The notes: generated by a model not told the origin, from the sequence alone. 24,000 nt of DNA from an uncultured Candidatus Saccharibacteria bacterium (GCA_964351635.1 CAYGOR010000001.1:9086-33085), one strand, 5' to 3'; shown: positions 324 through 18,186, counted from the first letter of the stretch. Translations and numbers: made by a program.

Positions 324-995
324 CTAAAGCTTTTGTGCATACACAAGGGCGTGCACTTCTTTAGCGCCCATTTTCTTAAGAGCTTTAGCGGCGGCGGCAA
401 GCGATGCACCGGTCGTCATAACATCATCAATTATCAGCACTCTTTTGCCTTTTAGATTGGCGTTCATGGGCACAAATTCACCTTCCATTTGACGAATTCT
501 CTCTTGCCGCGTGGAGCCCAGCTGGCGGACATTTGTCTGGCGGAGAAGTAGTGGTTTTGCGCGCAACTTTCCTTGGTTCCTAGATAGTTGTTCGGCGAGC
601 AGCCTCGCGTGATCAAATCCTCGCATCCGAATGCGCGCAGGGGCAGTAGGGACCCATGTCAGAACATCAAAGTCGCTGACGGTCAGTATTTGGCTCATAA
701 GCTTAGAGATTGGCGTGCAGCCCTGCCTCTGTAAATCGAACTTGTAGGAATGAAGTAGCCGCTCTTCGAGTCCATCAAGAGTCGTAGCTACCGTTATAGT
801 CTTTATACCAAGCCAGCTTTGGCAACTTTTGCAGGTTCTTGACTTGTCTGACAATTTCTTGCACCCAGCGCAGCGCGGCGGGGGAGGAGAGCCAGCAGAT
901 AGAAAACAATAGTCGCACAGCGGTGAACCATTTTTCTGACAAGCTAAACACTCGTATGGCGCAATCGTTCCTACTAACGAATCTAGTAGTGACAT
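324..995 (-). CDS. comFC: ComF-family phosphoribosyltransferase-like protein (ComFC type)
   Basis: N-terminal Cys pairs (CLAC, CDYC, CAGC, CKSC), an RGFDHA motif and the PRPP-binding loop VLIIDDVMTTGASL. Start set at Met17 (ATG 995-993) because a perfect TATAAT (minus strand, 1007-1002) lies 6 nt upstream. The open frame extends to 1043. Confidence 0.8.
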   Translation of the reverse strand: MSLLDSLVGTIAPYECLACQKNGSPLCDYCFLSAGSPPPPRCAGCKKLSDKSRTCKSCQSWLGIKTITVATTLDGLEERLLHSYKFDLQRQGCTPISKLMSQILTVSDFDVLTWVPTAPARIRMRGFDHARLLAEQLSRNQGKLRAKPLLLRQTNVRQLGSTRQERIRQMEGEFVPMNANLKGKRVLIIDDVMTTGASLAAAAKALKKMGAKEVHALVYAQKL

Positions 996-1106
996 GCCCA
1001 GATTATATGACAGCTTTATTGTCCAAGCTAACATTGCGAGCACAAAAATTATACGCTCTACCTCTGTATGTTGTATAAATTGTGTTGTAAATAACCCCTC
1101 CTACTG

Positions 1107-1257: not shown

Positions 1258-1752
1258 ATGGCACGACGCAATCGCGATGAGGATTTGCTACTAGAAGATG
1301 AATTAACGGCTGCGTTTTTGGGCGATGAGATGGAACAGCCTCAGCCCAATGTAGTTGATGATATGGCTGCAGAAGAACCAGCTCAAGAGACACCTGCTGC
1401 TGATGAGTGGGATGAAGATGAAGCTGTGCCTGGCCAACTTGCTGTTGATGTATATGAGACCAAGGAGAAGTTAGTAGTCAAAGCTCGGACTGCAGGCGTT
1501 AACAAGAACGATTTAGACGTCAGTATAGCCGACAACACTCTAAGTATCCGCGGAACCCTATCAGCTGGCGCAGAAGAAGGCGTCGAGAACTATTTTGTGC
1601 AGGAATGCTACTGGGGAGAATTCAGCCGCAGTATTGCACTTCCTGTGCCTGTCAAAGAAGATGAGATAGAAGCTATGCTCAAAGACGGAGTGCTGACCAT
1701 TAGCTTCAACAAGCTAAAGCAAGACACGGTCAAGAAGATTACTGTTAACTAA
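1258..1752 (+). CDS. hsp20: Hsp20/alpha-crystallin family small heat-shock protein with a ~60-aa acidic N-terminal extension
   Basis: Alpha-crystallin-domain pattern LAVDVYETKEKLVVKARTAGVNKNDLDVSI...LSIRG...YWGEFSRSIALPVPV...DGVLTISF. A purine-rich SD (AGAGAGGGAA) precedes the ATG. Confidence 0.9.
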   Translation: MARRNRDEDLLLEDELTAAFLGDEMEQPQPNVVDDMAAEEPAQETPAADEWDEDEAVPGQLAVDVYETKEKLVVKARTAGVNKNDLDVSIADNTLSIRGTLSAGAEEGVENYFVQECYWGEFSRSIALPVPVKEDEIEAMLKDGVLTISFNKLKQDTVKKITVN

Positions 1753-1838: not shown

Positions 1839-1872
1839 AAAAAAGCCACCATATAAAGTTAGGTGGCTTTTT
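1839..1872. terminator. Bidirectional intrinsic terminator at the 3' end of the minus-strand pilin-like operon
   Basis: AAAAAAGCCACC (1839-1850) and GGTGGCTTTTT (1862-1872): GC core GCCACC/GGTGGC with an 11-nt loop, flanked by A6 and T5 runs. It lies 13 nt from the stop of the 1885-2337 gene. Confidence 0.65.
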
Positions 1873-1884
1873 CTACTTGTTTTA

Positions 1885-2337
1885 CTACGGAGTTGTGTCA
1901 GCTTGATTAAGGCGTCCAGTAACGAACCTAACGATTATCTGCGCAAGCGCTACTATGACAAGTCCAACTATTGCGTAGAGGATTGTATTCTTGGCATTTG
2001 TAACGTTCCCTGAGTCACCGTTGGATGTGATGTACCGTAGACCACCGATGATAATCATGATAACAGCAACTATACCGACTATAAGTGAGATAATGTTTAC
2101 AATAGTGGTGATGATATTGTTGAGCGTTCCAGCAGCTCCATCATCGCCTGCATCGCTTTCACAAGTAGCATCATCCGCATTTAGTGTAAAGTCCAGGTTG
2201 GCACCAGCACATAACTGGTTGTTTATGTTATCCCCGGCATCATCGCCGGCCGCACTTGCAACCGCAGGTATCAACGCTGGCGCTGCAAAACCTAGTGAGA
2301 GCAACATACTGGCTAAAATTCTTTTAAGTCTTATCAT
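1885..2337 (-). CDS. VirB2/TrbC-like T4SS pilin paralogue P6 (distal copy, with its own promoter and terminator)
   Basis: Signal peptide MIRLKRILASMLLSLGFAAPALIPAVASA, Cys-x15-Cys acidic loop, and the conserved hairpin IIGGLRYITSNGDSGNVTNAKNTILYAIVGLVIVALAQIIVRFV. ATG 2337 is preceded by AAGGAAG. The track start at 2379 is a TTG that overlaps the predicted -10. Confidence 0.75.
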   Translation of the reverse strand: MIRLKRILASMLLSLGFAAPALIPAVASAAGDDAGDNINNQLCAGANLDFTLNADDATCESDAGDDGAAGTLNNIITTIVNIISLIVGIVAVIMIIIGGLRYITSNGDSGNVTNAKNTILYAIVGLVIVALAQIIVRFVTGRLNQADTTP

Positions 2338-2367
2338 AGTTTCTTCCTTGTTATTTTGTTTAGTTAC

Positions 2368-2396
2368 TTTATACCACAAGCCTGTTGATTGCTCAA
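2368..2396 (-). promoter_or_regulatory. Internal promoter for P6: TTGAGC (2396-2391), 17-nt spacer, TGg-TATAAA (2376-2368)
   Basis: Read on the minus strand. The -35 starts right after the stop codon of P5. There is an extended -10 TG, and the predicted TSS near 2361 gives a ~24-nt leader carrying the SD. Confidence 0.5.
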
Positions 2397-2849
2397 TTAA
2401 TTTTGGTTCTGACCAGCATTTGGATTGGCAGGAACGGACTGTTGGACAGGTGGGTCCTTAGAGACTGTTGATACTACGTAGCGCACAATTACTTGGGCTA
2501 GGGCAATAATAACCAATCCAACGAGGGCGTAAATTATTGTGTTTCGAGCACTAGCAGTTGAACTGCTATCGCCGCTTGAAGTTACGTAGCGTATACCACC
2601 AACTATTAGCATAATGACGGCAATTACAGCACCTATTAACGACAATATGTTGATAACAGTCTCTATTGTAGAGCCTACTTTATTGCTATCTTCGTCAGCG
2701 TTATCCCCACATTCCTCTCCAGCAGCACCTAAACCAGCACAAATAGCATCTTTAGCATCTACGGCCATTACAGGTTGAGGCCCATTAACAAAAGCTAGTA
2801 GTCCTGTTAATAGCGTAAGGCTAACAAAAAATGATGCGATTTTTCTCAT
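2397..2849 (-). CDS. VirB2/TrbC-like T4SS pilin paralogue P5
   Basis: Signal peptide MRKIASFFVSLTLLTGLLAFVNGPQPVMA, Cys-x9-Cys acidic loop, and hairpin LIVGGIRYVTSSGDSSSTASARNTIIYALVGLVIIALAQVIVRYV. Its ATGA start overlaps the stop of P4. Confidence 0.75.
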   Translation of the reverse strand: MRKIASFFVSLTLLTGLLAFVNGPQPVMAVDAKDAICAGLGAAGEECGDNADEDSNKVGSTIETVINILSLIGAVIAVIMLIVGGIRYVTSSGDSSSTASARNTIIYALVGLVIIALAQVIVRYVVSTVSKDPPVQQSVPANPNAGQNQN

Positions 2850-3256
2850 AGGCGGTTCACTACAAATACTACTATAGTTCGGGCTAATGCGACAATTACT
2901 AATCCGACGGCTGAGTAGATAATGGCATTGCGTGAGTTCTGGACTTTGGTCGAATCACCTCCAGACAACGTCATCGTTATACCAGCAATGACGATTATAA
3001 TCACAGCTATGACCGCAGTAACTATCGCCAGTATATTAGCTACTCTCTCGATAATCCCGGTGCTGCCGACAATTGGATCATCATCGTTTTGGCCTTTGCT
3101 TGTTTCCTCGCAGGCAGGCGACTCTTTACGTTGATCGTCAGTCAAATCGTCACACACGTTACCTATTGGATTAAAGCTTTCTGCAGAGATATGAGCAGGG
3201 GCTATTGCACCCAATGGCAGGAACAACAAAACAAGCATGGCTACAAACTTCTTCAT
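2846..3256 (-). CDS. VirB2/TrbC-like T4SS pilin paralogue P4
   Basis: Signal peptide MKKFVAMLVLLFLPLGAIAPAHISA, Cys-x13-Cys acidic loop, and hairpin VIAGITMTLSGGDSTKVQNSRNAIIYSAVGLVIVALARTIVVFV. Its start abuts the stop of P3. Confidence 0.75.
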   Translation of the reverse strand: MKKFVAMLVLLFLPLGAIAPAHISAESFNPIGNVCDDLTDDQRKESPACEETSKGQNDDDPIVGSTGIIERVANILAIVTAVIAVIIIVIAGITMTLSGGDSTKVQNSRNAIIYSAVGLVIVALARTIVVFVVNRL

Positions 3257-3547
3257 CTAGACGCTCCCCGCAATGTAACGAACCAGTGTGAAAGCAAGAA
3301 CCGCTAAAACTAGCCCGACAGCAGCATAAATAATAGTATTCTTTGCCTTTGCAGCTTTATCAGCTTCACCACGACTGAGGACATACTGCATGCCTGCAAT
3401 CACGATAACTAGGAAGGCTATCCCGCCCATAACACCAAAAGCGAGCTCAAGAAGTATTTGCACTGTACCGCTGTCAGCGTTTGTTTTTGGTATATCTAGA
3501 TCGTTTGGGTCTATGTTAACTTGGCTGAAAAATTCTAGTAACTTCAT
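3257..3547 (-). CDS. VirB2/TrbC-like paralogue P3: minimal 96-aa copy with no signal peptide and no Cys
   Basis: It has the same hairpin (VIAGMQYVLSRGEADKAAKAKNTIIYAAVGLVLAVLAFTLVRYI) but a hydrophilic N-terminus, MKLLEFFSQVNIDPNDLDIPK. It abuts both neighbouring genes. Confidence 0.7.
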   Translation of the reverse strand: MKLLEFFSQVNIDPNDLDIPKTNADSGTVQILLELAFGVMGGIAFLVIVIAGMQYVLSRGEADKAAKAKNTIIYAAVGLVLAVLAFTLVRYIAGSV

Positions 3548-4321
3548 TTATCCAGTTATCCTCTCTGCTATAAAAGACACTACGCGGGCGGCAATCATGA
3601 CGATAACCAGTCCAATAGCCGCGTTTATAACCGTTTTGCGGGCACTGGCCGCCTTATCAGACTCTCCCTGGGACACTAGATACAGGAATGCACCCCAGAA
3701 GATCATAACGACCGCAGCTAATCCTGCTATCACCATCATAGCCTCTAAGACCGCCAGCCCAATTGGTAAGAAAGACATTACATCTACTTCTCCGTCAGCA
3801 TTTCTGCCTAGCACTGGTGTACATTTACCAGGTTCGCTGTCAGAGAAAATCGTTTTGTCTCTTTCACCGTCTAGGTACTTATACCAGGTCGGGATACCGA
3901 GAATTGACCTATCGACATCATCACACGGTTCTTTCACGATAGTAAAAGCCGGAAGTGGACTGAAGCTACGAGCTTCTGCTTTGCGACAATTCGAACCACA
4001 ATCTTCGTTGTATTGTCCTGGGTCAAAAGATTCACAATCTCGTGAACTATATTCACCAACTACCGCTCCTTGATTGCTGACGCTAACAGGCGCGATATAG
4101 CAGGCGCCGTTTGTAACTGCTAAATTAAACTCATCAGGGCATGTCACATCAGATATTGTTGTTATTGTTTCCTCACCAGTTGTTGTGCCGTAAACCTGGT
4201 AGCAGCCTGGTGATGCAGCATTAGCGGTTTCGCTTACACCAAAAAGGCCGATTGCTGAAAACAACAAGGTAGCTGTTGCCAAGACAATTTTAACTAAGCT
4301 CGATATTCTCGAAAAAATCAT
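3548..4321 (-). CDS. VirB2/TrbC-like paralogue P2 with a ~150-aa, 8-Cys extracellular insertion
   Basis: Signal peptide ...GVSETANA, then an ectodomain with 8 Cys, then hairpin IFWGAFLYLVSQGESDKAASARKTVINAAIGLVIVMIAARVVSFI. Its ATGA start overlaps P1. Confidence 0.7.
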   Translation of the reverse strand: MIFSRISSLVKIVLATATLLFSAIGLFGVSETANAASPGCYQVYGTTTGEETITTISDVTCPDEFNLAVTNGACYIAPVSVSNQGAVVGEYSSRDCESFDPGQYNEDCGSNCRKAEARSFSPLPAFTIVKEPCDDVDRSILGIPTWYKYLDGERDKTIFSDSEPGKCTPVLGRNADGEVDVMSFLPIGLAVLEAMMVIAGLAAVVMIFWGAFLYLVSQGESDKAASARKTVINAAIGLVIVMIAARVVSFIAERITG

Positions 4322-4707
4322 AAAACGCCTCCCGGAACTAAGAAGTTCAGCCCTGCATACATTACGATCAGTGTCAGAAGGGCGATTAATGCCCAGACTA
4401 TCCGTTTTCTAGCTGCTTCAATCTGGCCAGAGTTGTCTCGAGCGGTCATGTACTGGAGACCCGCTATCATTATCGAAGCCACAATCGCGATTCCGGCTAC
4501 AGCAGTCAGTAGGTTGATGCCCGTTACGATATAACTGATAATCTTACAGTTACCTTGATCCAGCTCTTCAGAAGGCCCGACTTCACAGTCGCTAGCCAGC
4601 CCGTTGCTCGCTACAGTATTATGGACTGAATAACTGCTCGCTTGTCCACTAGCCAACATAGGTGTTATGAAAAGCAAGGAAATAAAGTATGCCTTTAGTA
4701 ATTTCAT
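4318..4707 (-). CDS. VirB2/TrbC-like paralogue P1 (most divergent; first gene of the operon)
   Basis: Signal peptide MKLLKAYFISLLFITPMLASGQA, Cys-x12-Cys acidic loop, and hairpin MIAGLQYMTARDNSGQIEAARKRIVWALIALLTLIVMYAGLNFL. Confidence 0.65.
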   Translation of the reverse strand: MKLLKAYFISLLFITPMLASGQASSYSVHNTVASNGLASDCEVGPSEELDQGNCKIISYIVTGINLLTAVAGIAIVASIMIAGLQYMTARDNSGQIEAARKRIVWALIALLTLIVMYAGLNFLVPGGVL

Positions 4708-4793
4708 GATCTTGATGAGAAGTATAACAAAGAAGTTTAATGAAAATAATTAAATACCCCTATTTCACTGTAAAAAATGCTACTATTTAGCAT
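4708..4793. promoter_or_regulatory. AT-rich 86-bp divergent promoter region between the pilin operon (-) and the T4SS core operon (+)
   Basis: Minus strand: TGt-TATACT (4729-4721), 13 nt before ATG 4707. Plus strand: TGc-TACTAT (4778-4786), 7 nt before ATG 4794. Neither start has an SD. Confidence 0.45.
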
Positions 4794-7700
4794 ATGCATT
4801 TAATGTCTAGCTTTCGGAAATCTCTAAGGCCTATTTCTTTATTGCTCACCACTGGTTTGTTTTTCGCTTTGCTTTCAGCTCCTTCGATAGTCCATGCTTT
4901 TTCACAAAGCTCTAGTTTTAATAGTGCGGCAGTGTTTACGATTGAGAGTCTATCCTTCACTGCGACGGACGTGAGCAATCACGTAATCCATAACGATAAT
5001 CTCGAGAAATTAACTGGAGAGGGCACTCTAGATGCTGGACTTGCCAGCTTGAACCAACGCCTATCTGATGCAATGCCTATCGTGCTAGTGGATACAGATA
5101 TCACAGACCCAACACCTGACCTAGAGGCTCCAGGGCTCGGCAATGGTTGTGACGGGGGGCAAACAATCAAGCTTGAAAGAAAAAACGGTGATGAATGGCT
5201 ACTTACTGATTTGCATGTCGGGGCTAACGGAAACTGTGTTGACCTTCTCCAGGACAAAAATATTAAATTCTACGATAGCTCGCCCGCTGAAGCCAATATC
5301 GCGTTTGCTTTTATAGATAGCGAAACTATATCAATGGTAGATTCCGTAGGAAGTAGTAGTTATGGATTATTCCAACAAAACGATCCTGCCTTTCCTAACA
5401 CCTTTTATTCTGAGAGAGAAGGTCAATCAATTGAAGTGCTCAACCCTGGTACTGGAGGAACCTCATCGTTGCAATTATCTGCGGGGCTAACTCTTGACTT
5501 TAGTGATTCATCAGTGGGATCAGATCCAAAAGTAGCATTACTGTCTAGCACAGGGGAGCCGACTGCGATTGTAGGATCTGTGGGAGGTCCAAATGGTGGC
5601 GCAACTGCAGGCAACGTTGATTCCGCTCGAACATGTGATTCTGAAGGAGGAGAGTTCAGCTTCCTATTGTGTCCTATCCTAAGAGGCATAAATGAAGGTA
5701 TAGAACAGCTTGACCAAGAAATTGTTCAGAGTCTCGAAGTTAAAGACGATTATTACGAGTCTGACCGAACCAGGGCTATATGGGGGCGCATCCGAGACAT
5801 AGCCTACATACTACTAATACCAATCTTGCTCATAATGGTTATATCGACTGCGCTCGGATTCCAGTTCGTAGATGCCTATACCGTTAAAAGAGCGATGCCG
5901 CGCCTGTTGGCGGCTGTCATTTTTATGGCTCTTTCTTATGACATAGGAGTCCTGCTGATAGAAATATCTAATGGAGTTGGGGCTGGAATAGGCGGTATTA
6001 TAGCTGCACCTTTCGGGGGAGTTGATAACCTTCAGCTGCAAGATATTTTTGAAGTCAGTGGAGAAAACGATGTAACCGCACTATTCATCGGAGGCCCGCT
6101 AGCTGCTATTGGCGCCCTGACTGCATTATCGGCAGGGATATTAGGATCTTACTTACTAGTCTTTGCCTTAACTCTTGTAATCATTTTTGCACTGCTTGCA
6201 ATGAGGGAGCTGCTAATTATCGCCTTGCTTATTCTTGGTCCCCTAGCAATCTTATCCTGGATATTCCCAGGGAACGATAAACTCTGGAAGCTATGGTGGG
6301 GATCATTCTCTAAGCTAGTAATGATATACCCAATTATTGTTGGGATGATCGTTACAGGTAGGGCCTTTGCAGCACTGGTTAATGAATCGGTCGCTAGCGT
6401 ACCTACTGGTCCTATTGAGGGGATGTTCTTCGTAATAGTGAAGCTAACCGCCTACATCGGTCCGTATTTCTTCATCCTAGCTCTATTTAAATTTGCTGGT
6501 GGAGCCTTCTCAAACCTCGCTGGCATGGTCAACGACCGCGGAAAAGGTGTCTTCGACCGCCAGAAAAAATACCGCTCAGAAAAGCGTGGCCAACTAAGAA
6601 AAGATACGTTGGCAGGGAATAGATTCAAAGGTGCTAGAAAAGGCAGCATAGGGGATAGAATTAACAAGCGCGGCCTAAATGCGGGTGCAAGGATAGATGC
6701 TGTGAAGGCTGGCGGCGTGAAGAATGCCTACGGCGTAGGAGCTAGGGGGGCAGTTGAGGCCGCTAAAGAACGCAAAGCCCGTGATGAGGCTAAGCATGCA
6801 GCCGAAAACTTACAGCTGCAAGCTGAACTTAAAAACGATGACTTCGCCACAATGTTACAAATGATAATGGCAGGTGAAGATGAGCAAACTGTAAAAGACT
6901 ACCTGCGTAGTAAAGATTATAGTGCACCCTCAGTGGAGAAAAGTTATGCCCAGGCAGATGCTTTCCAGCGTGAATATGGATCCCATGCACTAGCAGGCAT
7001 GACGGTAACGGCAAAAGCTGCATCAAAAACTTCATATACTGGCGGTATTTCTGAAATGCTAGAAGACATAAAAGCACTAGCAGATAACGATGAGGCGCTT
7101 GCTATGAAAATGCTGGGTGAAGCTTCGGCAGCCGCTGCAGCAGCTGGTCGAAACGACCTTGGCGGCGGTAGCTACGGCGAAAAGGCAGGAATGCTCAAGT
7201 CTCTAATGCGAGGGGGGTCTTCGGTAGAATATACAGACGAACAAGGAGAAACGGGCACTGTATCCTATCAATCTGCTCAATATGTTAACGACAGGCAAAA
7301 CCAAAAAGTGCTTGACAGTTTAACCACCTATGATATGGCTCGTCTACACCCAACGGCAGCAAAGAATATTTCTCAAAGCTACCAAACTATGACCACTAAC
7401 GCTGCTGCGGCTGTACAATCAGCAAAGACACCAGAAGAACGTGAAGCAGCTATGCGGGCGCTGGGTCAAGTTACAGCGTCGTTTCAGAAGTTTAAGATGG
7501 ATGCTGCAACTTCGGGTAGCTCAGAGGTCGCACGTGTTGTAGCTAACGCATCAAATGAAGAATTCAAAGACATTTCACTGGAAATTGACGGACAAAGAAT
7601 TCAGACCACTGACCAACTTGTTGAGTACGCACAACAAGCTTCTCAAGCCAGTCAGCCAAGGCCTAGTCGCGATGCAGAAGGTCGTATAGAATACGAGGTC

Positions 7701-7853
7701 GATGGAAGGGTTAAGATGACAAAATCTCAATTGCCTGATGACTCAGAAGCATTTGCTAAAGGCTTCGAATCAGTTAATCCGCGCGCAGCTTTAGGGCTTT
7801 CAACTGAAGACCAGATACGGATGAGGGAAGAGCAAGAAAATAATAATCAGTAG
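4794..7853 (+). CDS. VirB6/TrbL-like polytopic membrane protein with an N-terminal ectodomain and a long hydrophilic C-terminal tail
   Basis: Signal/anchor LLLTTGLFFALLSAPSIVHA, then a ~300-aa ectodomain (4 Cys). About 8 hydrophobic helices span aa ~333-575 (e.g. YLLVFALTLVIIFALLAMRELLIIALLILGPLAILSWIF). An A/K/E/Q-rich tail follows from aa 580 (nt 6531) to the end. Confidence 0.65.
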   Translation: MHLMSSFRKSLRPISLLLTTGLFFALLSAPSIVHAFSQSSSFNSAAVFTIESLSFTATDVSNHVIHNDNLEKLTGEGTLDAGLASLNQRLSDAMPIVLVDTDITDPTPDLEAPGLGNGCDGGQTIKLERKNGDEWLLTDLHVGANGNCVDLLQDKNIKFYDSSPAEANIAFAFIDSETISMVDSVGSSSYGLFQQNDPAFPNTFYSEREGQSIEVLNPGTGGTSSLQLSAGLTLDFSDSSVGSDPKVALLSSTGEPTAIVGSVGGPNGGATAGNVDSARTCDSEGGEFSFLLCPILRGINEGIEQLDQEIVQSLEVKDDYYESDRTRAIWGRIRDIAYILLIPILLIMVISTALGFQFVDAYTVKRAMPRLLAAVIFMALSYDIGVLLIEISNGVGAGIGGIIAAPFGGVDNLQLQDIFEVSGENDVTALFIGGPLAAIGALTALSAGILGSYLLVFALTLVIIFALLAMRELLIIALLILGPLAILSWIFPGNDKLWKLWWGSFSKLVMIYPIIVGMIVTGRAFAALVNESVASVPTGPIEGMFFVIVKLTAYIGPYFFILALFKFAGGAFSNLAGMVNDRGKGVFDRQKKYRSEKRGQLRKDTLAGNRFKGARKGSIGDRINKRGLNAGARIDAVKAGGVKNAYGVGARGAVEAAKERKARDEAKHAAENLQLQAELKNDDFATMLQMIMAGEDEQTVKDYLRSKDYSAPSVEKSYAQADAFQREYGSHALAGMTVTAKAASKTSYTGGISEMLEDIKALADNDEALAMKMLGEASAAAAAAGRNDLGGGSYGEKAGMLKSLMRGGSSVEYTDEQGETGTVSYQSAQYVNDRQNQKVLDSLTTYDMARLHPTAAKNISQSYQTMTTNAAAAVQSAKTPEEREAAMRALGQVTASFQKFKMDAATSGSSEVARVVANASNEEFKDISLEIDGQRIQTTDQLVEYAQQASQASQPRPSRDAEGRIEYEVDGRVKMTKSQLPDDSEAFAKGFESVNPRAALGLSTEDQIRMREEQENNNQ

Positions 7854-7902: not shown

Positions 7903-9300
7903 ATGGAACGCCCTAGCTTTCACCGTTCAGAGCATATGCTATCGACAAAAGAACACCTGTCGCGAACTCAGCATAGCCCTCACTCACTTGAAAACCATCC
8001 CTCCAACAATACTGACCTTGATGAACCGGGGGTAAATCCGAATCAAACCCCGATTGTCTCAAGCCTAGATGTCAGAGACGAGGAGGGTAATCTAGTATTC
8101 AGAACTAATGATCATGATCCTCGAAACAGGCCTGATGATCCCACTGGTGGGTCGCCGGACGCTATAGACTCAGGTAACAAGCCAAACTCACACACAAAAG
8201 CTTGGGGCGGACATAGTGAATCTGATGCGATTGTTCAAGATATGTTTACGAAGCTTGCGCCCGCAAGCTCAGCAGTTCCATCAAGGTTTAAATACAGTAA
8301 AGATACCTCAGCTAGCGACGGTGAGCAAGTCGCTAGATTTATTAATGAATACATCGAAAACTCTGGCGTTGGTCGTCTAGCTTTAACTGACGTGCAAGTT
8401 AGTGCTCTAGCAAGGTCAATTGATAGGGCACCAGCTATTAGTGAGCGGGGGCAACCCAGAAGAATCAAGCGATTAAGACGCGCTTTAAGCAATAGCGCTG
8501 GATCTGCCCATCAGGCATATAATGACAAGAAACTTGGATCAACTCCTGGAACCTTGAGAAATCCTGCATCAGACAGTCCCATTACTGTCGGGGTACAGAG
8601 AAATGCATATATCGCTCCAATATCTCGTCGACAGCTAAAGAAGAGGTTGAAAGCATCGTGGGCGGAATATGACCGCAGAGTAGCCCAGGTCGAAGCAAGT
8701 AAACTCTCTGGAAATTCCCGACCAGCTGACCCCGAAGGCAGCACAATTGGCCCAGCAAGCAGAGGACGTAAAAGGACCGCAAAATCTATCAATTATTACA
8801 AACACCATGAACATGTTGCGGCAGATGAAGTTGCGAAGCATACCTACGGTGTGGTCGACTTAGCCAAATATATTCCTTTCTACAGTGGACACATCAAGGC
8901 CGCATCACCTCTAAGCAATGTTAGAGGACTCCGAAAGTCAGCTCTTAGACTTGTGAAGGATGATGAAAAGAAAATGGAAAAGATGGAAAAACAAGCAGAC
9001 ATAGTAAATGAAATGATTAGAAAAGACGCATTCAGCCGTTACTTAATAGCCAAAAGTGAGGGTCGCTCAGACTCCGAAATCCGGGCACTTGAAGGCAAAC
9101 TAGGCATAATGCGTAACCTGCGCGACTACGAATTACCGCGCGCAGAAACAAGACGTGAAAAACGTCTAGCTAGACGGGTTGAAAAACGCCCTGGCAAAAT
9201 TCCTAGGGCGGTATCATCAGACAGAGTACGACGGAGACGCCTACGTAAGAAGAAAATAGCCGAGGGTGAAATTCACGTATTAAATGGTTCTGACACTTAG
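7903..9300 (+). CDS. Hypothetical protein: hydrophilic, strongly basic, apparently low-complexity, with no TM segment and no recognised domain
   Basis: A 465-aa ORF in operon context. It has R/K-rich tracts (RRIKRLRRAL, RRQLKKRLKAS, RRVEKRPGKIPRAVSSDRVRRRRLRKKKIAEGE) and an S/P/N/D-rich N-terminal third. Confidence 0.6.
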   Translation: MERPSFHRSEHMLSTKEHLSRTQHSPHSLENHPSNNTDLDEPGVNPNQTPIVSSLDVRDEEGNLVFRTNDHDPRNRPDDPTGGSPDAIDSGNKPNSHTKAWGGHSESDAIVQDMFTKLAPASSAVPSRFKYSKDTSASDGEQVARFINEYIENSGVGRLALTDVQVSALARSIDRAPAISERGQPRRIKRLRRALSNSAGSAHQAYNDKKLGSTPGTLRNPASDSPITVGVQRNAYIAPISRRQLKKRLKASWAEYDRRVAQVEASKLSGNSRPADPEGSTIGPASRGRKRTAKSINYYKHHEHVAADEVAKHTYGVVDLAKYIPFYSGHIKAASPLSNVRGLRKSALRLVKDDEKKMEKMEKQADIVNEMIRKDAFSRYLIAKSEGRSDSEIRALEGKLGIMRNLRDYELPRAETRREKRLARRVEKRPGKIPRAVSSDRVRRRRLRKKKIAEGEIHVLNGSDT

Positions 9301-9392
9301 CTCTTAAATCTAGTACCGTCATTTCCCAGGGGCTAAACTTAAGCCTCATAAACTTTTGAAGTTTTTAACTGTAAGTTATACTTATGGTTATC

Positions 9393-10466
9393 ATGGCGCA
9401 GTATAAAGTACCCCAAGACGTTGAGGCTGAGGATAAATTTCTCGGTCCGCTGACTTTTAAGCAGTTCTTATTTGGCGGCGCGACTGCAATTACAGGCTAT
9501 ATATCGTTCCTGATTCTTACCAGCCCAGTGCCATTTTTAGCTGTTATATTCTTACCGTTTTTCATAGTGTCGCTTGTCTTCACGATCCCATGGTCAAAGG
9601 ACCAGCCAACAGATATCTTTATAGCGTCACGCATAAGGTTTTTGCTCATGAAGCGCAAGCGTTTGTGGGATCAATCGGGATTAAAAGACCTGGTCACAAT
9701 AACTGTTCCGAAAAGGGAAGTTCACTATTATAGCGATGGCCTGTCGCAGGACGAGGTCCGTAGTCGTTTCACCGCTTTATCAAATGTGGTCGATTCTAGG
9801 GGATGGGCTGTAAAAAATGCTACGCGTCCAACGGAGGACTCAGACCGATTAGTAGCTCCGGCTGCGCCGCAGAAAAGTCCAGAGGAAGTTGTAGCCAAAC
9901 GAACACCGGACATGCTCGAAGAACGATCTGATCAAGTCGATCAAATGATAAAAAAGTCAGAGAATAATCACCGTAAAGAGACGCTAGATCTATTAGCAAG
10001 TGCGCGCAAAACTAGCTCCGACTCAAGCAGTCAGGCCTCCAAGATATCCAATAAGCCAGACACTCTGACCGGCAGCATCTCTTTACCTCAAGTCAGCCCA
10101 CAACATGCGTCCATGAAACCTAAAGCGCAAAAGACTAACAGTAAACCACTTACGGCAGAGGACGAGAAAAAGTTACTAGATGAGCTTCATAAGAAACAAG
10201 CTATTGAAAAGTCATTGCGCAACAATAGCCATGAAAAACGCATCCTCACCAGTGCAGAAAAACGAGCTGCAACCAAAAAAGAGGCTCAGGAACAGAGTGA
10301 GGCAAGGCAGCTCAAAGAAGACGCTCAAAATGCTAGTGCTACCCCAGTAAACCCTGGTATACTTAACTTAAGTCAAAACGATGATCGCTCTGTCGCGTCG
10401 CTTGCGCGTGAAGTGAATAATCAAAAACCTGATGACGATGGTGAGGTGGTCATATCACTCCATTAA
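9393..10466 (+). CDS. PrgI/VirB3-like small-membrane-protein module fused to a ~270-aa hydrophilic tail
   Basis: N-terminus MAQYKVPQDVEAEDKFLGPLTFKQFLFGG followed by two TM helices (ATAITGYISFLILTSPVPFLAVIFLPFFIVSLVFTI). This matches the PrgI-family pattern as I recall it. An alternative start is ATG 9384. TATACT at 9377-9382 favours 9393. Confidence 0.65.
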   Translation: MAQYKVPQDVEAEDKFLGPLTFKQFLFGGATAITGYISFLILTSPVPFLAVIFLPFFIVSLVFTIPWSKDQPTDIFIASRIRFLLMKRKRLWDQSGLKDLVTITVPKREVHYYSDGLSQDEVRSRFTALSNVVDSRGWAVKNATRPTEDSDRLVAPAAPQKSPEEVVAKRTPDMLEERSDQVDQMIKKSENNHRKETLDLLASARKTSSDSSSQASKISNKPDTLTGSISLPQVSPQHASMKPKAQKTNSKPLTAEDEKKLLDELHKKQAIEKSLRNNSHEKRILTSAEKRAATKKEAQEQSEARQLKEDAQNASATPVNPGILNLSQNDDRSVASLAREVNNQKPDDDGEVVISLH

Positions 10467-10502: not shown

Positions 10503-11303
10503 GTGAATCCGAACCAGCAGCCACAATCAGTTCAACCTCAAGTGACAGCTCCGCAAGCAGGGCCACCACCGCCACGCCCTCAGGCAAACCCTACTAGCAC
10601 CCAAAATTCCCTAGAGATTGCTGAGATTCGCGACGGCATCGTCATAATGAACGACGGCTCTTTCCGCGCCGTGCTTATGTGCCAAAGCATAAACTTTGAC
10701 CTCATGAGTCCAAATGAAAGAGAAGCTGTTGAATTTTCTTATCAGGGTTTTTTAAACTCTTTGTATTTTCCGATACAAGTGTTTGTCCGCTCTCAGAAAA
10801 TTGATATTCGTCCCTACATAGAAAAGCTGGACAAAATTAGAACCGAACACGACAACATGCTGCTAGCACTGCTGATGGAAGACTATATCAACTACATGGA
10901 AGTTATTGCCCAGCAGACCAATATCATGGACAAGAAATTCTACGTTGTCATCCCATTTGAACCGAAGATTGATGCCCAAAAAGTAGTTCAAGCCTCGCGC
11001 GGCTTTTTCCAGACAATATTCGGCAAAAAAGAAGAAAAAGTCGTTATAAACGAAGCTGACCTGGAAAGGGCAAAAACCGAGTTAAAAAACCGTATCCAAG
11101 CGACCATGAATGGCCTGCTGCAATGCCAAGTGAAGTCTCTACCGCTAGATACTCAAGAACTAATAGAGCTTTACTATGACGCTTACAACCCCGACACTGC
11201 TACTCGCCAGCAGCTCAAAAACTTTAGTGATCTTACCGCCCCTATCGTCTCTAAAGGGCAAGGACAAGCGGCCAATCCAAACCTAGAAAGGGAAATGAAC
11301 TAA
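10503..11303 (+). CDS. VirB4 N-terminal-domain-like protein (apparently the detached first segment of a Gram-positive-type VirB4)
   Basis: GTG start, which is the first possible start after an in-frame TAA. A P/Q-rich N-terminus is followed by IAEIRDGIVIMNDGSFRAVLMCQSINFDLMSPNEREAVEFSYQGFLNSL..PIQVFV. This resembles the extreme N-terminus of Tn916 Orf16/PrgJ-type VirB4 proteins. Its stop overlaps the next ATG (TAATG). Confidence 0.6.
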   Translation: MNPNQQPQSVQPQVTAPQAGPPPPRPQANPTSTQNSLEIAEIRDGIVIMNDGSFRAVLMCQSINFDLMSPNEREAVEFSYQGFLNSLYFPIQVFVRSQKIDIRPYIEKLDKIRTEHDNMLLALLMEDYINYMEVIAQQTNIMDKKFYVVIPFEPKIDAQKVVQASRGFFQTIFGKKEEKVVINEADLERAKTELKNRIQATMNGLLQCQVKSLPLDTQELIELYYDAYNPDTATRQQLKNFSDLTAPIVSKGQGQAANPNLEREMN

Positions 11304-13265: not shown

Positions 13266-16200
13266 ATGGCAGAACCAGCAAGAAATTTAGCCGATGATGA
13301 GGGCGACAAAAGCCCTAAAAAAATCAAGGCTACCCTAAAGATAGTCCAGGGCGAAGGTAAGGGCGATGGAATTCCGGCTGGAAAGCTTTCGGCTGCGAAA
13401 GGACCAAGGCGCCGAAGACCGGCGAAAAAACCAGCTGGCGGATCTGGGTCTCGACCACGTCACTTATCTGTAGTGCCCGATGCGCCCGATGATTCAACTG
13501 GCAGTTCGGTAGGAAACGGGGGCCAAGCACCAGTTTTTGCCCCGCCGAACGCTAGTGATCGTATTGCTGACGGGAATATTGACGATGACGGCAATCCTAC
13601 CTTAGAGGATGAGGACTCAAAAGACGCCTCAGACAGCGAAGAAGCTAAGGAAAATTCAAATTCAGAGGCGCCTGATTCGTCGAACAGCGCCAATGAGATT
13701 CCCTTTAAAGAAAATGACGCCACACCAGAAGACGGGCAGGATAAAAGTGGTGTCAGCGACGATGAGTTAAACAAGTTTGGTTTCGCTAATGATCCCGATA
13801 AAGGCTCATGGGCAAATGCAACTGATCAAGCCAAGCGCAACGCCCAAATCAAAAAAAATAACAGCAAGAAAAAGAAGGGTATATATGCGCTAGTCGGAGG
13901 CATCGGCGTCACATTGGCGGTGGTAGGAGCGTTTCTAGCGATACCGCAGCTTGCCATGAACAACGCGCTAGACAAACTAACTAGTCGATTCTCCGACCGC
14001 ATGAGCTACGCTGTTGAAAAACGATTTGATAAATATGTCGGCAAGTATGTGACTAAAAACGTAGCCCCAAGTCTAAAAGATGGCCGCTGCGGTAAAACGT
14101 TAACTGCGAGCTGCATTAAAGTCAATGAGTCTACGGGATTAGTTAGAACTGCGATAACGGGCTGGAATGATGCAAGGCTGGAAAGTCGGCTGGAAAAGAG
14201 TGCTGGCGTAACATTTCAGCGCAGAGCAGATACAAATGAAATAGACCTTGTTGGCAGAGACGGCAAAGTGCTCACATCTTTCGGTCAAAGAATATCCTCT
14301 CGTCAGCTAGAGGACCTTATCAGGAAAGAGACCAATTATGAAGGTGTACTAAAACGAAGACATTTGAGGTCAGTCGGGAGCAGATATGGTGTAAAGTGGT
14401 GCCTGAGCTTCGTGGTGAATGAAAAAATCTGTGGGGCCCGTAATAAAGCGGACGAGCTGAACACTCGATTCTCGGCCTTTAAACGTAGGCAATTACTTAT
14501 GATAGCAAGGGTCGCGGAGCCAATAAGCACCAGGGGAGGGGCTGTCCTTTTTTGCATGCTTCAGTCTTCCTGTGACATAGATAAAAACACAGGATTAGAA
14601 GATTCTCTTAAACTCTTGGGGAAAGCCGACGACGAAGCATTCAGGAAGATCGTGGACGAAATAGGAGATAAGAAAGTGTCTCAATATCTGGTAGATAAAA
14701 TCTTAGACATCACTATACGGCAAGCTTTACCTAAGGTCGCTACAGCCATTTCGTCTGCGGCAACAGGAGTTGGAGCCATCTATGGAGCGGCGATTATTCT
14801 AGACCTAATTGATAGATTTGACACTGCCATTGATTCAGGAGCTCTCAAGGCATTCATCCTAGACCGTAACGCGCAAGCAGCTATGCTTTTCATGTCCACT
14901 ATTGTGTCGGGCATAGAAGAAGCTCAGGATTTCAGCGTAGGCATGCCCGAAATTAGTGCTACTTTCCAGCAACTAACTGGATTCAACGTGAGTCGGTTCT
15001 ATCAGTCGCTCGCAAGCGGCGAGCCTACTAGTGAATTGAGTTGCAACGATGGGTATTTAATCCCTAAAGACTCCCCAGAGCTTGTGTGCCCAGAAAACAG
15101 CCTGCAGCCCGATGTACCTGTGGAGGAGTTTTTGTCAGGTCCAGAGTTCCAATTCGCTACAGACCATCTCCTAAAAGAATGGCGAACTTGCTATATATTT
15201 TCCCTTAAAGGAGGTTGTGCTGAGACCGTTGGCGATACTGCTAGAAGAGGGCTGAAGGCGGTTGATGGAGTTTTTGGGGCGGTAGGTGGGCTCATTAGCT
15301 TTGCTATAAACAAAATCCCTGGCGTGAGTAGCTTTACCGAGTATCTAGGAACTCATTTCGCAAGCGTTCTTAACACAGTAATAAACAAAGGATTACCAAT
15401 TAGTGTTGATGCAACTGCGGTTGGCTGGAGGGCTTTTGATCAGATGGCAGCAGCATTTGATTATTCGTACAACCAGTTGTTAGGTGGCTATCAGGATGAG
15501 CAGGGCCAGTTCCAAGGTTTTGGGGCCGGCGAGATATCAGAAGAAGATGCCGAAGAGCTAGACGTAGCTATAGCCGACTGGAGAGGGGAGAAACTGCAGA
15601 GTCAATCTGTTTTTGCTCGCTATTTAGACGTTACTAATCCAGACTCATTAGCCGCCACGTCTTTAACCAGAGTTTCATTTGCACTGCCTTTTGCCGGACA
15701 AGCGTCCCAGCTGCCTAGCCCTGTGAACTTTGCTTCGCTTTTTGGTGGCCTATTTGGTAACAAGGCAAGTGCGGCCATACCTAGTAATGTTTACAGTGAA
15801 TCTAATTTTGGAGTTACCCAGCATGCATTCACTGTAGAACAGCTTGAAACTGACCCAGAAGAGCTAACAGAAGAATTCTGCGCCGAAGAAAAAGCAGCTT
15901 TTGCAGAAGCCAGGGAAAACGATAAAGCGGCGACGAGCCTATGCATGCTAGATGAGGCAATGGTCGACATGGTAACAAAAGCCTTCAGCCCTGACCCGCC
16001 CGGAACGTCAATAAGTACATTGGTCGGGACTCAAAGCTCGTTCACAGGATTGGATGGCCCGACCATACCCTATAACCAGCACGAAACACCTACTACTGTT
16101 GTCAGGACTGGTAGATACGCTGACTGGTCTGGCTTGACTCCTACAGGAGTATTAGGCCAGAACAGCGCTGGACAACCAATTAACGTATACGTCAGAAACG

Positions 16201-16844
16201 CAGCTCCAAATATTAGCGAACCCCGACGTGTCGTTATTGGTACGTCCATACACGGCTCAGAGAACGCAGGTCAGTTCCTGGTTCATGAACTTTTATACAA
16301 TACGGATTTGCCGGACGACGTAGAACTAATTGCAATACCTGAAATAAATAAGTCTGGAGTACCTTTTAGCAAGCGAAAAAATGCCACCGGAACTGACGAA
16401 TCTAATAGAAGTGATATCACGATAGGGGTAGACCTCAACAGGAACTGGGACTACAACTGGTCTAGCGCGGGGTCCACTGACCCAACCAACAAAAATTACC
16501 GAGGTACTGAACCTGAGAGCGAACCAGAAACAAAAGCTGTTGCTGACTTTTTACGTTCGCTCGGCAAGGTAGATTTGTTTGCTAGCTTTCACGCTAACCT
16601 AGACTATGTTGCCCCCGTCGGCAACACGCCAATAGAAGTAGCGGTTGCATACAGCAGTCGGTCTGGGATGAACGTAGGTAACGGACGAACGCAATATGTT
16701 GAACAGAGCGGCTCCATGGATGCTTGGTTTAATTCACTGACAGGCAGCCCGACTCTCTTGGTTGAGCTGTCTAGCTCAGACTCACGAGCCTATATTCACA
16801 AGCAAGTTAACTCAATGCTCGAGGCTATAGATGCTCTTCCTTAA
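13266..16844 (+). CDS. Large membrane-anchored protein: ~204-aa charged cytoplasmic low-complexity N-terminus, TM helix, ~750-aa unknown domain, and a C-terminal M14 zinc-carboxypeptidase-like domain
   Basis: TM GIYALVGGIGVTLAVVGAFLAIPQL (from nt 13878). M14 hallmarks: HGSE (His996 at 16251, Glu999), VDLNRNWDYNW, and SFHAN (His1109 at 16590). A GAGGG SD lies upstream of ATG 13266. Confidence 0.7.
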   Translation: MAEPARNLADDEGDKSPKKIKATLKIVQGEGKGDGIPAGKLSAAKGPRRRRPAKKPAGGSGSRPRHLSVVPDAPDDSTGSSVGNGGQAPVFAPPNASDRIADGNIDDDGNPTLEDEDSKDASDSEEAKENSNSEAPDSSNSANEIPFKENDATPEDGQDKSGVSDDELNKFGFANDPDKGSWANATDQAKRNAQIKKNNSKKKKGIYALVGGIGVTLAVVGAFLAIPQLAMNNALDKLTSRFSDRMSYAVEKRFDKYVGKYVTKNVAPSLKDGRCGKTLTASCIKVNESTGLVRTAITGWNDARLESRLEKSAGVTFQRRADTNEIDLVGRDGKVLTSFGQRISSRQLEDLIRKETNYEGVLKRRHLRSVGSRYGVKWCLSFVVNEKICGARNKADELNTRFSAFKRRQLLMIARVAEPISTRGGAVLFCMLQSSCDIDKNTGLEDSLKLLGKADDEAFRKIVDEIGDKKVSQYLVDKILDITIRQALPKVATAISSAATGVGAIYGAAIILDLIDRFDTAIDSGALKAFILDRNAQAAMLFMSTIVSGIEEAQDFSVGMPEISATFQQLTGFNVSRFYQSLASGEPTSELSCNDGYLIPKDSPELVCPENSLQPDVPVEEFLSGPEFQFATDHLLKEWRTCYIFSLKGGCAETVGDTARRGLKAVDGVFGAVGGLISFAINKIPGVSSFTEYLGTHFASVLNTVINKGLPISVDATAVGWRAFDQMAAAFDYSYNQLLGGYQDEQGQFQGFGAGEISEEDAEELDVAIADWRGEKLQSQSVFARYLDVTNPDSLAATSLTRVSFALPFAGQASQLPSPVNFASLFGGLFGNKASAAIPSNVYSESNFGVTQHAFTVEQLETDPEELTEEFCAEEKAAFAEARENDKAATSLCMLDEAMVDMVTKAFSPDPPGTSISTLVGTQSSFTGLDGPTIPYNQHETPTTVVRTGRYADWSGLTPTGVLGQNSAGQPINVYVRNAAPNISEPRRVVIGTSIHGSENAGQFLVHELLYNTDLPDDVELIAIPEINKSGVPFSKRKNATGTDESNRSDITIGVDLNRNWDYNWSSAGSTDPTNKNYRGTEPESEPETKAVADFLRSLGKVDLFASFHANLDYVAPVGNTPIEVAVAYSSRSGMNVGNGRTQYVEQSGSMDAWFNSLTGSPTLLVELSSSDSRAYIHKQVNSMLEAIDALP

Positions 16845-18186
16845 GGCAAAGCCGTTTGTTGTAATGCTAGCCGTAGTGATTCTGCTGTTTTCACAATCTA
16901 TCTCAGTGTCTGCAGAGCTACTGCCATTCACAACGGATGACTTAAATTCCGTAAATAGGTCAGAGAATTTTCGTGACCGCATATTCACTACCACCCAAGC
17001 CTGCAGTCTGGATATTTCAGCAGGCAACGCAACTAAAGAAGAGCTCTACCAGAACGCATGGAATTACTTAACTGACCCTGCTGGAATAGGGCTATCTCCT
17101 GAGGCTGCGGCCGGAATTATGGGTAACCTCGACAAAGAGTCAGCCGGAACAATGGATCCCCAAATTGTACAGTTTTCCGCAAACTTCCCAGACAACAGGA
17201 GCCCTGAGCTACCGATAGATGAAATACGGGGTAAGTATGGTTATGGTATTGCTCAGTGGACTTACGGCCCTCGACAGGACAACTTGATTGCATATGCAAG
17301 TGAGACAAATCGCTCTAGCGGTGACCTAGGGCTACAGCTTGACTTTCTATTGAAAGAATTAAGCGAGTCCTACGTGGGAGTTAAGGCAGTGATGGAAGAT
17401 CCTGATGTCACAATTGAGAGGGCGTCCGATGTATTTTTGCTTGAGTTCGAGCGGCCAGCAGCCGTCCTTCCTCCCCCTAGAGGCACAGCAGAATCAAAAG
17501 CCAACGAGATCGCTGACAGGCGAGAGCGTGGTGTTCGAATATTCAACACTTACTCAAACTTACCTGCAGGTTCATTCAAATCATCGACTTGTGCTGCCGG
17601 AATCAATGGTAGCGTTATTGTTGACATGGAGTCAGCTGACACAAGCGCTGTTCCTTGTGCACCCGGAACCGAAGACGCAGGAATTACTCAGGGGTACAGA
17701 AGAGGTGAAGAAACTACGATTCGCCTCTGTAACATTACCGTGAATGGCCGCACAAGTCGCGTTAATTCACAGTTATCGGGTCCTCTGCTGGCACTCTTCA
17801 ACACAGCGAGAGGAAGTGGCGTTCCTTTAGAGCTAAATGGAATATTTAGAGATATGGACGGTCAAATTGGAATATATACTAAATGGTGTAGTTCGGGCGG
17901 CATTACGCCGACGCCACCTCCTTATCCAAAAGCTTCGTATAGTGATTACACTCGTTGTCCTGGAGGAGCGCCACCAGGCTACTCGAATCATCAAATGGGG
18001 CTTGCGATAGATTTTAACTGTGACGGCTCACTAATCCCTCAGTCCTATTCATCCGCTCAGTTAAATGAGTGTTTCCAGTGGCTTGTCTCAAATGCAGGAG
18101 TTTTTGGATTATTTGAACTAGGAAAAGGAGAAAATCGTAATGGCTCAGGCTACGAAGGTTGGCACTGGTCAGTAGATGGAAGGTAA
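16831..18186 (+). CDS. Secreted two-domain peptidoglycan hydrolase: phage-tail-lysozyme-like N-domain plus M15 (VanY-like) C-domain
   Basis: Signal peptide ...LLFSQSISVSA. Lysozyme-like motifs AAAGIMGNLDKESAG and YGYGIAQWTYGPRQDNL. M15 motifs GYSNHQMGLAIDF (His387 at 17989) and EGWHWS. A GAGG SD lies 6 nt upstream. The gene overlaps the upstream gene by 14 nt. Confidence 0.75.
   Translation: MLFLKAKPFVVMLAVVILLFSQSISVSAELLPFTTDDLNSVNRSENFRDRIFTTTQACSLDISAGNATKEELYQNAWNYLTDPAGIGLSPEAAAGIMGNLDKESAGTMDPQIVQFSANFPDNRSPELPIDEIRGKYGYGIAQWTYGPRQDNLIAYASETNRSSGDLGLQLDFLLKELSESYVGVKAVMEDPDVTIERASDVFLLEFERPAAVLPPPRGTAESKANEIADRRERGVRIFNTYSNLPAGSFKSSTCAAGINGSVIVDMESADTSAVPCAPGTEDAGITQGYRRGEETTIRLCNITVNGRTSRVNSQLSGPLLALFNTARGSGVPLELNGIFRDMDGQIGIYTKWCSSGGITPTPPPYPKASYSDYTRCPGGAPPGYSNHQMGLAIDFNCDGSLIPQSYSSAQLNECFQWLVSNAGVFGLFELGKGENRNGSGYEGWHWSVDGR

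Follow-up and report, generated by a model that had tools for sequence, protein, structure and literature searches.

A stretch of 24,000 nucleotides (nt) from an uncultured Candidatus Saccharibacteria bacterium (GCA_964351635.1, CAYGOR010000001.1:9086-33085; hereafter the window) contains six consecutive open reading frames (ORFs) on the minus strand, at positions 4707..1885, beside genes that encode a type IV secretion system (T4SS). An initial annotation, made from the sequence alone, had described these ORFs as tandem, translationally coupled VirB2/TrbC-like paralogues with ATGA overlaps or zero spacing at four junctions. We confirmed the positions of all six ORFs, which we label pilins A–F in the order of transcription (Table 1), and each of the four junctions proved to be exact: A and B overlap by an ATGA at 4321-4318, the TAA stop codon of B is directly followed by the ATG of C (3548/3547), the TAG of C is directly followed by the ATG of D (3257/3256), and D and E overlap by an ATGA at 2849-2846. 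The remaining junction, between E and F, is a gap of 59 nt, and tight packing is thus confined to five of the six genes; the genes for A–E are probably translationally coupled. An in-frame stop codon lies directly upstream of the start of pilin C. For pilin F, ATG 2337 is the most likely start, rather than TTG 2379, since it is served by an AAGGAAG Shine-Dalgarno sequence, agrees with the NCBI call of 150 amino acids (aa), and marks the point at which the alignments of orthologues begin. The signal-peptide cleavage that we predict for five of the products was judged by eye from AXA-type sites.

Table 1 Genes and sequence elements of the pilin array and the adjoining T4SS locus
Feature	Position	Strand	Details
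comF-type phosphoribosyltransferase	324-1043	-	flanks array; also in L080 and Ca. S. epibionticum (SEML1_0020/0021)
Hsp20	1258-1752	+	flanks array; also in L080 and Ca. S. epibionticum (SEML1_0020/0021)
Terminator-like hairpin after F	1839..1872	-	AAAAAGCCACC, 11-nt loop, GGUGGCUUUUUU
Pilin F	1885..2337	-	150 aa; signal peptide, Cys pair C43/C59, hairpin; candidate major subunit
Shine-Dalgarno sequence of F	2349..2343	-	AAGGAAG; follows promoter-like element
Promoter-like element in E-F gap	2368..2396	-	TTGAGC, 17 nt, extended -10 TGGTATAAA; read from sequence
Pilin E	2397..2849	-	150 aa; signal peptide, Cys pair C37/C47, hairpin, Pro/Gln-rich C-terminal tail
Pilin D	2846..3256	-	136 aa; signal peptide, Cys pair C35/C49, very acidic pre-hairpin region, hairpin
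Pilin C	3257..3547	-	96 aa; no signal peptide, no Cys; short acidic N-tail, then hairpin
Pilin B	3548..4321	-	257 aa, 8 Cys; signal peptide, orphan Cys-rich insert of ~95 aa, C133-x7-LGIPTWYKYL...GKC167, hairpin
Pilin A	4318..4707	-	129 aa; signal peptide, Cys pair C41/C54, hairpin, C-terminal PGGVL tail (typical of the A group)
Divergent intergenic region, pilin A / VirB6-like gene	4708..4793	.	86 bp; divergence seen in related loci inspected
VirB6/TrbL-like polytopic membrane protein	4794..7853	+	1019 aa; presumed assembly platform; PF19590 TrbL_3 in precomputed annotation
Very basic protein	7903-9300	+	465 aa; looks low-complexity/disordered; between VirB6-like gene and PrgI
PrgI-family (VirB3-like) protein	9384..10466	+	PF12666 44.7 bits, cut-off 27
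TrsD-like N-terminal half of split VirB4	10503-11303	+	266 aa; NF041427 29 bits, below cut-off
VirB4 ATPase, CD1110 family	11303-13222	+	639 aa; NF045971 365 bits, cut-off 325; PF19044 also matches
Two envelope peptidoglycan-hydrolase proteins	13266..18186	+	PF00246 76.5, PF18013 81.7, PF02557 51.3 bits

The six ORFs encode T4SS-pilin-like hairpins

All six proteins end in a common module, a helix–loop–helix hairpin of ~68 aa that scores 91-103 bits in each of them (91 in A) against a hidden Markov model (HMM) of the hairpin. That the six share such a module had been recognised in the initial annotation, which put its length at only ~45 aa; the two literal motifs that it gave for the module are complete in C, E and F, and differ at one to three positions in A, B and D. 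An alignment of the six proteins contains only one invariant column, and identity to F ranges from 23 to 40%. Five of the six pass the gathering cut-off of 26.6 bits for Pfam family PF18895 (T4SS_pilin), with scores of 58.4 for F, 50.4 for E, 48.1 for C, 39.2 for D and 38.8 for B. Pilin A, at 24.2 bits, falls 2.4 bits short; despite this, its hairpin aligns with those of the other five and its orthologues are cleanly recovered. Against PF04956 (TrbC/VirB2), which has a cut-off of 27.9 bits, the score of F is exactly 27.9, those of E (24.2), D (23.3) and C (22.4) are lower, and A and B do not match; many homologues of F carry both PF18895 and PF04956 in precomputed annotation. NF045849, the Mbov_0395 family, is the best NCBIfam match of all six proteins at 16.5-36 bits (E values of 4e-9 to 5e-3; 32.6 bits for A), below its cut-off of 40 bits, and by this measure the six pilins are relatives of that family and not members of it.

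AlphaFold2 (AF2) models of F and B are consistent with this picture. In F, helices are predicted at residues 68-104 and 109-148 with predicted local distance difference test (pLDDT) scores of 80-90, and in B at 181-216 and 221-256 with hairpin scores of 85-89; an N-terminal helix is also predicted at 2-29. Neither the Cys-bracketed region of F nor the Cys-rich insert of B was given a confident fold by AF2 (for B, pLDDT was below 50 over residues 30-126 and ~70-76 over residues 130-180). Together, the Pfam models and the genomic context support assignment of the hairpin to the T4SS-pilin / TrbC-VirB2 superfamily, in keeping with the family originally proposed.

Some JGI records name proteins of this kind "cytochrome bd-type quinol oxidase subunit 2", and the six could in principle be unrelated small membrane proteins that merely adjoin a T4SS. 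Profile searches yielded weak matches of this type, to Pfam subunit II (E = 0.034) and to the subunit 2 chain of cytochrome bd-I in the PDB (E = 0.36), which are far below threshold and span a single hydrophobic hairpin. Given that PF18895 is matched by five of the six proteins, that the array strictly adjoins the VirB6-like gene in ~55 loci, and that its counterparts are co-essential with the T4SS in strain ML1 (see below), we find an unrelated origin scarcely credible. We reject the cytochrome bd subunit II name as a spurious annotation.

A monoderm-type T4SS adjoins the array

The initial annotation had placed the array in a monoderm-type T4SS context, and the adjoining genes bear this out, encoding a VirB6-like protein, a PrgI-family protein, a TrsD-like protein, a CD1110-type VirB4 and wall hydrolases (Table 1). 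The pilin genes are divergent from the VirB6-like gene and lie 4.7-8.5 kb from the genes for PrgI and VirB4, an arrangement kept in ~55 loci; because the same arrangement recurs in that many independent Saccharibacteria loci, the array is not a product of chance. The VirB6-like protein has 172 homologues at E<=1e-10, of which those that are named belong to Saccharibacteria, and its nearest database homologue is 56% identical; the PF19590 match recorded for it was not reproduced by a local Pfam scan. The genes for the TrsD-like protein and the VirB4 ATPase overlap by one base (11303), and the two hydrolase genes are followed by recF, dnaN, dnaA and rnpA. Within the 24,000 nt, we found neither a relaxase nor a coupling protein, and no VirB5, VirB7, VirB9 or VirB10.

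The pilins form orthologous groups in a fixed order

Using an alignment of the VirB6-like protein, we gathered 78 Saccharibacteria loci and searched all six of their reading frames with the hairpin HMM. Where the flanking sequence sufficed, almost every locus had 6-7 pilin genes (the extremes being 5-9), and in the loci inspected these were divergent from VirB6. Assignment of each protein to its best-matching window paralogue by BLAST gave the order A-B-C-D-E-F almost everywhere, and in an unsupervised comparison the best hit in other six-gene arrays fell at the same position in 100%, 100%, 86%, 65%, 58% and 91% of cases for positions 1-6, respectively. A pilin's best hits are its positional counterparts in the arrays of other genomes and not its neighbours in its own, and the nearest relative of the window, locus L080, has the same gene order. 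On this evidence, the paralogues are old orthologous groups in the fixed order A-B-C-D-E-F. Recent lineage-specific amplification, the mark of the Anaplasma and Bartonella Trw arrays, was not seen among these loci.

When HMMs of the orthologous groups were used to write each array as a formula, 37 of 55 loci were ABCDEF and 14 were ABCDEFF, and 52 of the 55 arrays had exactly five non-F genes, tightly packed, together with between one and three of F type. For six-gene arrays, this step has an element of circularity, the HMMs having been built from groups defined by position; for the additional genes in seven-gene arrays it is independent. F is the sole pilin type to be duplicated. Consistent with the spacing in the window, the median gap is -1 nt upstream of B–E and 70 nt upstream of F-type genes.

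A conserved promoter-like element precedes F

The gap between E and F in the window holds a promoter-like element (Table 1). In 38 of 49 loci (0.9 expected), a TGnTATAA box lies in the gap that precedes the last gene; its end is 31-35 nt 5' of the start codon, and in several loci a terminator hairpin stands before it. This conserved box implies that the F-type pilin may constitute a separate transcription unit. A scan for consensus promoters and terminators found no more sites than in shuffled sequences and did not flag the E-F element, the -10 of which ends in A. The same scan missed the terminator-like hairpin after F, with its loop of more than 8 nt; the region at 1825-1890 folds at -17.4 kcal/mol (z = -4.24), and none of 200 shuffled sequences was as stable.

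At the other end of the array, many loci have a TTGAC-N17-TA(T/G)AAT-type promoter that ends ~7-13 nt before the first pilin start, with no Shine-Dalgarno sequence, and in the window TGTTATACT ends 13 nt 5' of ATG 4707 of pilin A. Such spacing suggests that the mRNA of the A–E unit may be leaderless or have a very short leader.

The regions before the hairpin are acidic, Cys-bearing and fast-evolving

Ahead of the hairpin, the paralogues are almost wholly unlike one another. A single Cys pair with 9-15 residues between its members is present in A, D, E and F, precisely those proteins for which it had first been noted; B has more Cys residues and C has none (Table 1). Relative to 14 other ORFs of the window, the pre-hairpin regions are enriched sevenfold in Cys (4.9% versus 0.7%, p = 2e-8), enriched in Asp and Glu (19.3% versus 12.7%, Fisher p = 0.001) and depleted in Lys and Arg (5.8% versus 11.1%, p = 0.002). 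The excess of Asp and Glu that had been noted at the outset therefore stands, and that of Gly, noted with it, is marginal only (9.8% versus 6.8%, p = 0.04). The Cys pattern extends across loci: of the proteins in groups B, D, E and F, 79-89% have exactly two Cys residues ahead of the hairpin (48 of 54 in the D group and 31 of 38 in the E group), and the number of Cys is even in 87% of 364 pilins. Members of the C group have a median length of 97 aa and no N-terminal hydrophobic segment resembling a signal peptide, and 49 of 51 have no Cys before the hairpin.

Pilin B combines an invariant and an orphan segment. The motif C-x7-LGIPTWYKYL...GKC, which lies beside helix 1, is invariant in 20 B-group proteins, and in a homologue search with the B pre-hairpin region only the C-terminal 40-48%, containing the LGIPTWYKYL module, was conserved; for the Cys-rich insert (residues 36-130, ~95 aa, six Cys) the search found no homologues beyond the nearest relative. 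Across Saccharibacteria loci, a long, variable, Cys-rich extension of 92-423 aa is usually carried by the protein at position 1. In the window, L004 and L080 it is on B instead of A, and the protein sizes in strain ML1 (132/185 aa for the first two) suggest that it is on B there too. The extension appears to have switched carrier, between A and B, from one lineage to another.

Mean identity across orthologues is 0.23-0.33 before the hairpin, as opposed to 0.42-0.68 within it, where F is the best conserved (0.68, against 0.42-0.56 in the other groups). For estimates of nonsynonymous (dN) and synonymous (dS) divergence, we used L080, which was found through an F protein 77% identical to that of the window. 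For A–E, dN was 0.46-0.74 before the hairpin and 0.18-0.28 within it, and for F it was 0.19 and 0.09, respectively. By these estimates, sequence outside the hairpin changes at about 2-3 times the rate of the hairpin itself. A dN/dS ratio above 1 cannot be shown, because dS is saturated even against L080, in nearly every partition (pS 0.58-1.03).

The initial annotation had connected the hypervariable loops with diversifying selection. On that account, which was proposed for Anaplasma and Bartonella Trw and is also suggested for these arrays in a 2025 survey (PMC12102498), the six genes would be alternative major pilins, serving antigenic or phage escape or the matching of host strains. The near-complete dissimilarity of the pre-hairpin regions between paralogues, their faster evolution, and the range of 92-423 aa in the Cys-rich extension at position 1 or 2 are all as such an account would have it. 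However, the paralogues fall into ancient orthologous groups whose order is fixed, and are not recent amplifications, the spacing of -4 to +1 nt implies co-expression and not alternative expression, all six genes are depleted in the transposon sequencing (Tn-seq) of strain ML1 (PMC10633639), the exposed loop of B is invariant, the Cys positions are conserved, and saturation of dS leaves no demonstrable dN/dS above 1. Diversifying selection is therefore not upheld, and we regard interchangeable variants as quite improbable; the evidence instead argues for a co-expressed hetero-oligomer.

Related proteins carry many hairpins in one polypeptide

Of 1.84 billion cluster representatives, 71,287 were matched by a profile of the six proteins at E<=1e-3, and the top matches are single polypeptides in which 4-17 tandem hairpins follow one signal peptide. 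To link hairpins covalently is possible, on topological grounds, only if they are N-out/C-out, and such linkage suggests that different hairpins adjoin one another within one assembly. Proteins P0262, P0264, P0265 and P0269 have 4, 6, 11 or 17 T4SS_pilin hairpins in tandem, with short connecting linkers in which Cys is often present. Two such poly-pilins lie inside arrays of single-hairpin pilin genes (L085:2861-4021 and L087:1777-3435), and the neighbours of the 17-hairpin protein (L086:10001-15328) are of archaeal type (ribosomal L39e, Cas4/Csa1).

The fusion proteins also bear on a different use of the hairpins, in which they would stay in the membrane as a fixed hetero-oligomeric translocon ring around VirB6/VirB3, comparable to a c-ring, and would not be extruded. 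Covalent linkage of 4-17 hairpins is easier to accommodate in a closed ring than in a free polymer, and the constant number of five distinct subunits suggests a fixed stoichiometry. Set against this are the placement of the family with conjugative pilins, the labelling of PrgF, which supports extrusion in a related monoderm system, and the conserved acidic regions bracketed by putative disulfides, which argue for a function outside the membrane, though they are compatible with a ring. On balance we think a membrane-resident ring unlikely.

Comparison with published systems

The closest published counterpart is in Ca. Southlakia epibionticum ML1, which has six PF18895 genes, SEML1_0014-0019, encoding proteins of 132/185/103/126/127/138 aa (Wang et al. 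2023, Cell; PMC10633639). The two loci match gene for gene (Table S1 of PMC10633639): the order in both is dnaA, six PF18895 genes, then Hsp20 and comFC, with a divergent VirB6-like gene, and in both the pilins run short, long, ~100 aa and then three of ~130-150 aa, with a gap before the last gene that is 83 nt in ML1. Indeed, the window has the features that define the SEML1-type locus, at least six PF18895-type genes divergent from a VirB6-like gene, followed by Hsp20, near dnaA. The species differ, as does pilin B, which is longer in the window (257 versus 185 aa) and has a longer, orphan Cys-rich insert. Judging from synteny, protein sizes and Pfam matches, the window array is the positional orthologue of SEML1_0014-0019. 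In ML1, a cultivated relative and the only strain for which a requirement in epibiotic growth has been shown, Tn-seq scored all six pilins as essential (calls of GD/ES/ES), the T4SS genes are co-essential with them, and Hsp20 but not comFC was called essential (PMC10633639).

Arrays of this kind have also been surveyed across the Patescibacteria (Quinonero-Coronel et al. 2025, Microb Genom; PMC12102498). According to that survey, VirB2-like genes occur in 1,948 assemblies and form 441 arrays of 2-11 genes, which have ~25% within-array identity and are enriched in Saccharimonadia, and TrsD is the T4SS component that was recovered in the greatest numbers. Like the array in the window, those described there are tandem runs of PF18895/PF04956 genes in the vicinity of virB4 and dnaA that have no relaxase gene close by; unlike our finding of fixed groups in a five-plus-F layout, that survey likens them to amplified, antigenically varying VirB2 paralogues.

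PrgF of the Enterococcus plasmid pCF10 offers a precedent: this VirB2-like hairpin is indispensable for conjugation and has been modelled as a pilus on a pentamer of the VirB6-like PrgH, with labelling that supports extrusion (ter Beek et al. 2025 preprint, 10.64898/2025.12.18.695078). VirB2-like proteins were found in 95% of the representative Gram-positive conjugative plasmids analysed in that study, and for 16 example plasmids with several candidates, only one per plasmid modelled as a pilus (10.64898/2025.12.18.695078). The window pilins resemble PrgF in being small two-helix hairpins with a short charged loop, encoded beside a VirB6-like gene, PrgI and a CD1110-type VirB4, and pilin C shares with PrgF the format of a bare hairpin lacking a signal peptide. 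PrgF differs in that it serves conjugation and does not match PF18895, and in that the window has six distinct pilins. The order of signal peptide and two-helix hairpin with a short polar loop is likewise that of VirB2 (pTi), TrbC (RP4) and TraA (F), the conjugative pilins of diderm T4SSs; the window system is monoderm and has six paralogues, with an acidic extension, presumably bracketed by a disulfide, before helix 1. With the Mbov_0395 family of Mycoplasma integrative and conjugative elements, finally, the pilins share the best NCBIfam match, and the window VirB4 also matches the partner protein Mbov_0397; that family has one gene per element, on a mobile element. These matches suggest that the pilin may have come along with the monoderm machinery.

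The original description of such an array in a T4SS context as unusual does not hold: the array is the rule in Saccharibacteria, has been published (PMC10633639) and surveyed across the Patescibacteria (PMC12102498), and VirB2-like proteins are also reported for Gram-positive T4SSs. Both the type of feature and the type of locus are already known, and the window itself adds no new type of system; our modest contribution consists of the five-plus-F layout, the element preceding F and the finding of fusion proteins.

A hetero-oligomeric conduit as the probable role of the array

Taken together, our findings make it likely that the six genes supply the VirB2-like pilins of an origin-proximal, chromosomal, monoderm-type (MPF-FATA-like) T4SS, and that their products build a hetero-oligomeric conduit with F as the bulk subunit. 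Each product would insert in the membrane as an N-out/C-out helical hairpin, five of them by way of a cleaved signal peptide and C without one, like PrgF. The short acidic N-terminal region, stapled by one disulfide, would face outward, and the polar loop (S-x-G-D/E-S ... A-R/K-N) would at first be cytoplasmic and would come to line the lumen once the hairpin is extracted from the membrane. Extracted hairpins would be stacked on the VirB6-like platform, with the split VirB4 supplying the power, into a tube that would run through the envelope towards the host bacterium and presumably carry cargo. The subunits would not be interchangeable: A–E would be made together as minor, base or tip subunits, and F would be the one that polymerises in bulk. 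Conservation is highest in F, which is preceded by a conserved promoter-like element of its own and alone among the types is duplicated; these features make F the likely major subunit and also fit the suggestion, made in the initial annotation, of a major pilin accompanied by minor or tip subunits.

Several observations weigh against this interpretation. No pilus or tube made of a PF18895 protein has been observed in any organism in the literature, and no VirB2-type filament has been observed in Patescibacteria, which would favour the membrane-resident ring considered above; the filaments isolated from Ca. M. amalyticus, a Saccharibacterium, proved by cryo-EM to be Pam pili with Ig-like folds and not VirB2-type tubes. 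Direct comparisons gave nothing significant: a Foldseek search of the PDB with the AF2 model of F had a best E value of 1.2 (the Aeropyrum conjugation pilus, 8dfu, was at E = 5 with a template modelling (TM) score of 0.62), a PDB sequence search with a 50-sequence profile of F returned only chance-level matches, and hhalign gave the F profile probabilities of 2.2% against pTi VirB2 (from pTi1D1609) and 8.7% against pCF10 PrgF. The case for homology to these two proteins comes from the Pfam models only, and a two-helix hairpin holds little fold information. In addition, the Tn-seq essentiality of A–E taken singly could be polar, effects that were not excluded in ML1 (PMC10633639), the array varies in size (5-9 genes) with D, E and F only partly separable, and the promoter role given to the E-F element, which the consensus scan did not flag, follows from a motif match only.

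A more specific and rather doubtful version of the conduit is that A–E, one copy of each, form a hetero-pentameric cap or base layer that replaces the absent VirB5 and matches the five-fold symmetry expected for the VirB6-like platform, beneath which F, expressed separately, polymerises as the wall of the tube. If this were so, the array would provide the first example of a T4SS pilus that is hetero-oligomeric and has a genetically hard-wired "5 + n" stoichiometry, and the fused multi-hairpin pilins of other lineages would be the same idea extended.

In Saccharibacteria, which are ultrasmall epibionts of other bacteria, few machines have been demonstrated to be indispensable to this way of life, and the T4SS with its pilins is one of them. 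The pattern across genomes, in which five distinct pilins behave as a co-expressed set and one that is highly conserved as separately promoted, turns a hetero-oligomeric tube that has a defined base or tip into a concrete and testable model, and the fixed set of genes argues against the analogy with antigenic variation drawn in the survey (PMC12102498).

Other genes of the window

No Pfam or NCBIfam family was matched by the basic 465-aa protein. Of the two hydrolases, one is 1192 aa long and ends in an M14 peptidase domain; the other, of 451 aa, combines Phage_lysozyme2 and VanY domains and may have a VirB1-like role. The window VirB4 is identical to one in NCBI assembly GCA_030430405.1. On the NCBI contig with this VirB4, which ends within the range of the window, the 1192-aa M14 protein (13266-16844, plus strand) is called as 786 aa (L001:11964-14324), reflecting either an assembly difference or a frameshift or stop codon between the two.

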